Part shown: one piece after another, positions 61,825-61,958 of the stretch
Layout: the number at the start of each line of letters is the position of its first letter
Position numbering within the stretch: position 1 is the stretch's first letter
NCBI RefSeq assembly: GCF_055900595.2
Contig: NZ_CM148325.1
Length of the DNA stretch: 64,000 nucleotides
Direction: 5' to 3' (one strand)
Notes under the pieces: model-generated
What the model saw: the letters and a program-made list of their open reading frames with translations, nothing else
Databases searched by the model: none
What the model was told of the DNA's origin: nothing
Translations under genes and position numbers: made by a program

Positions 61825-61913
61825 AGCTGCTTTCCTGATGCAAAAACGAGGCTAGTTTACCGTATCTGTGGGGGGATGGCTTGTAGTTATGACGACAGGG
61901 AGAGTTTGTAGAA

Positions 61914-61944
61914 ACGCAAAAAGGCCCAGTCTTCCGACTGGGCC
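61914..61944 (-). terminator. rRNA operon terminator (single hairpin) between 5S rRNA and murB
   Basis: GGCCCAGTCGGAAGACTGGGCC hairpin followed by TTTTTGCG on the minus strand. Confidence 0.55.
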
Positions 61945-61958
61945 TTCTGCTTAATTTG

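Follow-up and report, generated by a model that had tools for sequence, protein, structure and literature searches.

A single T1-like hairpin between the 5S rRNA gene and murB: a probable natural allele of the Escherichia coli rrnB 3' end

The window analysed here is a single stretch of 64,000 nucleotides, which carries the rrnB-murB-birA region of E. coli on the minus strand. Its relevant features are reported in Table 1. The 5S gene was matched by the Rfam family RF00001 (5S_rRNA) at 61961-62076, with a score of 93.2 bits; murB is annotated in every matching E. coli record, and the thrU-tyrU-glyT-thrT tRNA cluster lies further on. The 5S gene ends at 61959 and the murB ATG starts at 61824, leaving a spacer of 134 bp (61825-61958). 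Along the direction of transcription, this is made of the trailer CAAATTAAGCAGAA, a 9-bp stem, a TTTTT run and a further 90 bp or so up to the murB ATG. The 18-mer AACTGCCAGGCATCAAAT, formed by the 3' end of the 5S gene and the beginning of the trailer, is found at 61954-61971.

Table 1. Positions of the features discussed in the text, within the 64,000-nucleotide window.
Feature	Position	Strand	Basis	Remarks
murB ORF	60796..61824	minus		UDP-N-acetylenolpyruvoylglucosamine reductase, 342 aa
murB upstream region	61825..61917	minus	alignment	near-identical across rrnB alleles
U-run TTTTT	61918..61922	minus	sequence	directly 3' of the stem, then GCGTTTCT
Terminator hairpin	61923..61944	minus	sequence, fold, covariation	
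5S trailer CAAATTAAGCAGAA	61945..61958	minus	alignments, fold	
rrfB	61959..62078	minus	ends set from K-12	5S rRNA of rrnB, mature 120 nt
23S rRNA of rrnB, 3' part	62172..64000	minus	Rfam RF02541, 1789 bits	runs off the window
rrnE operon, whole	21208-26679	minus	Rfam, sequence	
rrnE 16S rRNA	25138-26679	minus		
rrnE spacer tRNA	24980-25052	minus		
rrnE 23S rRNA	21879-24783	minus		
rrnE 5S rRNA	21668-21783	minus		
rrnE terminator	21626-21652	minus		K-12-type hairpin CCCCGGTCCATAAGGCCGGGG + T6; then yjaA, yjaB, metA

The stem of the hairpin (GGCCCAGTC/GACTGGGCC) consists of 9 base pairs, all of the Watson-Crick type and 7 of them G-C, and is closed by a GGAA tetraloop of the GNRA class (61932-61935). 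The folding energy predicted for the stem alone is -18.8 kcal/mol, versus -15.8 for K-12 T1 and -14.7 for K-12 T2. When the whole 134-nt spacer was folded, an MFE of -36.2 kcal/mol was obtained (z = -2.6); the terminator was the sole strong helix, apart from which only weak pairs, scattered around the ribosome-binding region of murB, were predicted. In these predictions, the AGAA of the trailer is also able to pair with the U-run, thus lengthening the stem. An earlier note on this DNA, made from the letters alone, had reported only one hairpin in the 134 bp between 5S and murB; its coordinates proved exact, and folding revealed no other strong helix.

Conservation of the pairing was evaluated on 11 homologues, a small sample, in which 99% of the cells were paired and three stem positions showed double compensatory changes, a level of covariation matched by only 2 of 500 shuffles. 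Compensatory variants are found in E. whittamii (GGCT..AGCC) and in E. albertii (CGGTC..GACCG). The pairing of the hairpin is beyond chance. A scan based on a consensus terminator model reported no terminator in the 61500-62200 interval. The same scan, run on K-12, detected T1 and missed the experimentally proven T2, which has flanks identical to those of the window hairpin; the negative result was therefore discounted as a limitation of the tool. A possible reading of the miss is that the A/U extension of the stem uses up the T-run. As judged from its letters, the interval has the anatomy of an intrinsic (Rho-independent) terminator, namely a G+C-rich stem, a short loop, a U-run and a helix kept in evolution. 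A sub-variant of the same rrnB hairpin, observed in ST131 and found in 549 genomes, has a run of only four T behind the stem (GGGCCTTTTGCG); its left flank, GCGAAAGG, pairs perfectly with this T-run to give an extended hairpin with a predicted energy of -30.2 kcal/mol.

The arrangement of K-12 is different. In MG1655, the 5S-murB spacer is 300 bp long, versus 134 bp in the window, and contains, in this order, T1 (GGCTCAGTCGAAAGACTGGGCC) and its long A/U extension, a spacer of about 120 bp, a copy of the 18-mer and T2 (GGCCATCCTGACGGATGGCC), after which the murB-proximal sequence is that of the window. The longer tandem region with a 5S-like fragment, which the earlier note had described for K-12, is thus the one present there, and alignment to K-12 and to other E. 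coli confirmed that the single-hairpin arrangement is not that of K-12. A second hairpin was not found within the 134-bp spacer, which is therefore not a dual terminator of the K-12 type. When the entire 64-kb window was searched for the 18-mer, allowing up to 2 mismatches, one copy was found at rrnB and one at rrnE; a second copy downstream of the rrnB 5S gene is absent.

The sequence of the hairpin combines characters of both K-12 terminators. Its 14-nt core, CAGTCGGAAGACTG, differs from that of K-12 rrnB T1, CAGTCGAAAGACTG, by one loop base, and is identical, in the alignment, to the T1 core of K-12 rrnA and rrnD, while both its flanks match the context of T2, as the earlier note had suggested. 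The trailer CAAATTAAGCAGAA is of the type found at T2, rrnC and rrnH, where a T1-type trailer would read AAATAAAACGAA. In comparison with K-12 rrnB T2 (Brosius 1981, Orosz 1991, as cited in PMC8144298), the hairpin occupies the same place relative to murB and has the same GGCC clamp, the same U5 run and identical left (CAAATTAAGCAGAAGGCC) and right (GGCCTTTTTGCGTTTCTACAAACTC) flanks; however, the inner stem-loop is CAGTC-GGAA-GACTG rather than ATCC-TGAC-GGAT, the stem has 9 rather than 8 bp and is more stable by about 4 kcal/mol, and it directly follows a genuine 5S gene, whereas K-12 T2 follows the sequence located between the two terminators. In comparison with K-12 T1 of rrnA, rrnB and rrnD, it shares the T1-like inner stem-loop and the position directly after the 5S gene, but lacks the G.U pair found at the fourth stem position of T1 (GGCT..GGCC), and has T2-type flanks in place of the long A/U-rich extension AAATAAAACGAAA / TTTCGTTTTAT. 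The general architecture, 5S followed by a short trailer and one intrinsic terminator, is also that of K-12 rrnG, with a T2-type hairpin, and of K-12 rrnE, with an unrelated one, although in both cases the hairpin sequence and the downstream gene differ from those at rrnB in the window. The 5S trailer CAAAT.., the GGC[CT]-clamped stem and the U-run are the characters by which the hairpin can be assigned to the rrn T1/T2 terminator family.

The sequences that separate the two terminators of rrnA, rrnB and rrnD from each other are known as tRNA-linked repeats, or TLRs (Rudd 1999; Stenum et al. 2021, PMC8144298). As described in the latter paper, they encode the short-lived sRNAs RrA, RrB and RrF, made by read-through of a leaky T1, with termination efficiencies of about 87% for T1 and about 100% for T2; the three sRNAs bind Hfq and CsrA in vitro, have been proposed to link rRNA transcription to CsrA, and gave weak knockout phenotypes. 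The same source describes the TLR as present three times in K-12 and as conserved across genera. The TLR (rrA/rrB/rrF) corresponds to the additional stretch of about 166 bp that K-12 has at rrnB, and the 18 bp at its 3' end, the K-12 duplicate of the 18-mer, are the 5S-like fragment. Two probes derived from the spacer, with up to 3 mismatches allowed, found no TLR sequence in the 64-kb window, and no Rfam family matched either the window spacer or the K-12 TLR, at gathering as well as E-value thresholds. T1, the TLR/rrB and T2, in this succession in K-12, are all missing from rrnB in the window, which is a TLR-empty site and, having neither a leaky first terminator nor a TLR spacer, cannot produce RrB.

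The distribution of the different forms was established on 5,426 complete E. coli genomes, 5,398 of which contain the 5S-murB junction. By a junction-specific query, the tandem T1-TLR-T2 was found at rrnB in 2,520 genomes (about 47% of 5,398), including K-12 and O103:H2. The single hairpin with a T1-like core is present in 2,126 genomes (about 39%), of which 1,577 have five T and 549 the four T of the ST131 type; the latter were counted by a separate query, their exact match of 27 nt being shorter than the 28-nt seed. Strains carrying it include O157:H7, O55:H7, the type strain DSM 30083, clone D i14 and ST131, and some complete genomes are 100% identical to the window over 481 bp. The remaining forms, mostly single T2, amount to about 750 genomes (about 14%), a figure obtained by subtraction, since the search joins the 5S and T2 pieces of tandem alleles into one place; it fits 4 of the 30 rows of a spread sample and roughly 3 of the 39 rows of the junction search. 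An example is strain 30COLEC, in which a single T2, with flanks identical to those of K-12, comes straight after the rrnB 5S gene.

The single-hairpin rrnB is a common and old natural variant, an ordinary and widespread allele that had remained uncharacterised. Its frequency bears on the possibility that the missing segment was lost during assembly, by collapse of the two 18-bp repeats, which the earlier note had kept as a potential refutation. The ends of rRNA operons are rich in repeats and often broken or collapsed in drafts, and many contig ends were met in the outgroup scan described below; but the same arrangement is shared by the 2,126 complete genomes, produced by many laboratories on many platforms, and a collapse would yield a T2 hairpin, unlike that of the window. 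Given the agreement of thousands of independent finished assemblies, an artefact of this kind can be regarded as practically excluded.

A biological version of the same event was also considered, in which the lineage recently had a K-12-like tandem and lost part of it as the 3' end of the 5S gene underwent homologous recombination with the 18-bp copy that closes the TLR. These 18-bp direct repeats bound exactly the missing segment, as may also be gathered from PMC8144298, and clean products or precursors of such recombination exist at rrnB of 30COLEC and at rrnD of O26:H11. The reaction would however leave T2 unchanged; the predicted core is ATCCTGACGGAT, where the window has CAGTCGGAAGACTG, and replacement of the 14-nt core would call for a second event. 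Furthermore, other rrn operons, species and genera share this cassette, and a single hairpin is present at this junction in three Escherichia outgroups. The collapse put forward in the earlier note thus stands as far as the repeats and the single-T2 alleles are concerned, both of which are real in other genomes; as the origin of the window allele, it is left unsupported by the absence of an unchanged GGCCATCCTGACGGATGGCC, and we consider it improbable.

The window cassette, defined as the 45 nt including trailer, hairpin and U-run, is not confined to rrnB. The hairpin was found in 3,788 places in 2,934 genomes, and the cassette was located at the end of rrnA in the O103:H2 strain 129, of rrnE in strains D5 and LR-51 and in a record labelled DH5alpha, and of rrnG in ST131 MNCRE44. 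The copies at rrnA and rrnE share about 40 further identical bases downstream of the hairpin, which indicates that the exchanged tracts reach past it. The record labelled DH5alpha (NZ_CP026085.1) is 4.83 Mb long, has a non-K-12 rrnE 3' end and may be mislabelled. In the three rrnE cases, the window-type cassette is accompanied by REP-like sequence and the interval from 5S to yjaB lacks an annotated yjaA, while yjaA is present there in both the window and K-12; this contrast reveals at least two structural alleles of the rrnE 3' end. In the window, rrnE ends in the K-12-type hairpin reported in Table 1, and two rrn operons of one genome therefore carry unrelated single terminators.

The T1+TLR unit is also variable at other operons. 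In K-12, the whole tandem module is carried by rrnA, rrnB and rrnD; the rrnA and rrnB modules differ by 1 base in about 210, and that of rrnD by about 10, a near-identity which is a signature of concerted evolution. At rrnD, in the junction with yhdZ, the T1+TLR unit (about 167 bp) is present in 3,233 genomes and absent from the rest; in those lacking it, such as O26:H11 11368 and O7:K1 CE10, the distal 5S gene directly precedes the T2-type hairpin proper to rrnD. A simple explanation based on phylogroups was tried and rejected, as the TLR is absent at rrnD of O26:H11 and at rrnA of an O103:H2 strain, and the pattern is a mosaic; we take these strains to belong to the same broad group as the strains with a tandem rrnB.

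Over all operons, the TLR spacer was found in 3,975 of the 5,426 complete genomes and was missing from 1,451, with identical counts whether megablast or blastn (word size 11) was used. About 27% of these genomes thus appear to be devoid of any rrA/rrB/rrF copy. Genomes carrying the TLR have 1 to 3 chromosomal copies, and more where the element is borne by plasmids; natural strains, therefore, hold from zero to three of these genes. In CFT073, the sole TLR match is a vector-derived fragment. In the corresponding record (NZ_CP051263.1), a TEM beta-lactamase lies beside msbA together with fragments of 5S and of T1, in what looks like an engineered insertion. Variation from 0 to 3 copies within E. 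coli, or strains without TLRs, are not mentioned in the sections of PMC8144298 that were searched, and a literature search found no report on polymorphism of rrn terminators.

Outgroups were examined by scanning species-representative genomes with a degenerate pattern for the MurB N-terminus, which yielded 66 Enterobacteriaceae loci; E. fergusonii, E. marmotae and the GTDB representative of E. coli mismatch the pattern and fall outside this set. The 5S end is on the contig for 41 of the 66 loci, while for the other 25, including E. albertii, the contig stops before it. In 35 of the 41 informative loci, a genuine 5S gene is followed by no second copy of the 5S end before murB, mostly with a single terminator; two hairpins are kept in a few of them, such as Enterobacter JUb54, Raoultella ornithinolytica, where the tandem has a degenerate repeat, and two Kosakonia. 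Five loci are clearly tandem, namely those of Kluyvera genomosp. 3, Enterobacter sp. CC120223-11, Salmonella diarizonae, Phytobacter diazotrophicus and Enterobacter sp. 10-1. Among the Escherichia loci, the 5S gene of E. whittamii is followed by a single T1-like hairpin, in which the outer pair is changed in compensation, and those of Escherichia sp. E1V33 and 'E. coli' E69 by a single hairpin of the T2 type; in E. albertii, whose contig ends before the 5S gene, the murB flank adjoins a T1-like core in which an inner pair is changed in compensation. At the 5S-murB junction of Kosakonia oryzendophytica the window cassette is found almost base for base, and a close variant of it in Phytobacter massiliensis, whereas in Enterobacter sp. 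BIGb0383 a single T1 with its own flanks adjoins murB. Enterobacterial 5S-murB junctions were also met in contigs of Chryseobacterium sp. 18061 and of a Flavobacterium psychrophilum MAG, probably as a result of contamination.

Given the single hairpin of all three Escherichia outgroups with 5S on the contig, it is at least equally likely that the K-12 tandem is the derived form, and the presence of the tandem at the same junction in Salmonella and in several genera makes the tandem state old as well. Both single-hairpin types and tandem states are, on this comparison, old and recurring. In the light of the three informative species, the single state looks ancestral within Escherichia, and the tandem of K-12 rrnB would plausibly be a later acquisition from rrnA or rrnD. 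A more comprehensive scenario, in which the T1-rrB-T2 of K-12 and of many commensals results from a lineage-specific conversion from rrnA/rrnD, the window form is ancestral and T1+TLR is a cassette present in 0 to 3 copies, is advanced only tentatively. If it were true, the dose of RrA/B/F, which bind CsrA and Hfq, would be a naturally variable trait, possibly affecting growth-phase regulation.

The mixed character of the hairpin could also derive from an old event joining T1 and T2. A deletion between the 3' halves of the two terminators, at a GGCCTTT microhomology, would join the T1 hairpin to the right flank of T2; the left flank would then have been converted to the common 5S trailer TTAAGCAG, and the product would have spread among operons. 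The core and GGAA loop are indeed identical to those of rrnA/rrnD T1, the right flank is identical to that of T2, the left one is the trailer of rrnC, rrnH and T2, and Enterobacter sp. BIGb0383 shows that T1-only products occur. Nevertheless, two steps are required, the first base of the stem differs as well (GGCC vs GGCT), and no intermediate with the left flank of T1 and the right flank of T2 was seen in Escherichia; a single ancestral terminator could equally have given rise to the three hairpin types by divergence of its paralogues. This origin seems unlikely, if slightly less so than the recent collapse.

The reading that we favour, and hold to be likely, is that this is how rrnB naturally ends in a lineage in which the operon is devoid of the T1 + TLR (rrB) unit. 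As the cassette is present at other operons and in other species, its hairpin can be seen as a long-standing, gene-converted representative of the rrn terminator family. The antitermination complexes of rrn operons are resistant to Rho, yet are halted by strong intrinsic terminators, and the 3' trailer of 5S rRNA is removed by RNase E and exonucleases. Transcription leaving the 5S gene meets one canonical intrinsic terminator, where RNA polymerase carrying the rrn antitermination modification is expected to stop at about 61918-61922, and the 3' trailer of pre-5S would be trimmed as usual. Paralogue sequence sharing suggests that the hairpin is a distinct cassette, spread behind different rrn operons by gene conversion. 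Similarly, the unit of about 166 bp formed by T1+TLR, flanked by 18-bp direct repeats, may have been gained repeatedly by conversion between paralogues and lost by recombination between the repeats, so that a few terminator cassettes (T1+TLR+T2, T2 alone, T1-like single and the rrnE type) would shuttle between operons.

Although the overall importance of the single-hairpin rrnB allele is modest, the textbook rrnB T1T2, a widely used plasmid part, describes less than half of the complete E. coli genomes, and the 3' ends of rrn operons are better pictured as a mosaic of interchangeable terminator cassettes. Roughly a quarter of the complete genomes would be natural triple nulls, which offer material for testing the function of RrA/B/F and fit the weak knockout phenotypes described in PMC8144298.

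Downstream of the terminator, in the otherwise variable spacer, the best-conserved block is GGTA[AC]ACT, which precedes the murB ATG by 28-33 nt in 62 of the 66 Enterobacteriaceae loci. In the window it corresponds to GGTAAACT at 61854-61861, 29 nt before the ATG, and may be considered a candidate -10 element of murB (TAAACT); a sigma-70 consensus scan called no promoter at this block. Expression of murB-birA would be expected to depend mainly on a promoter of its own, within the conserved 90 bp or so that follow the hairpin. Elsewhere in the window, a match to the Rfam family RNA-OUT at 13043-13112, on the minus strand (97 bits), indicates a copy of IS10 between metA and the rrnE-distal genes, and three tandem matches to naRNA4, a REP-derived, nucleoid-associated RNA, at 16125-16385, also on the minus strand, correspond to an ordinary REP/BIME array.
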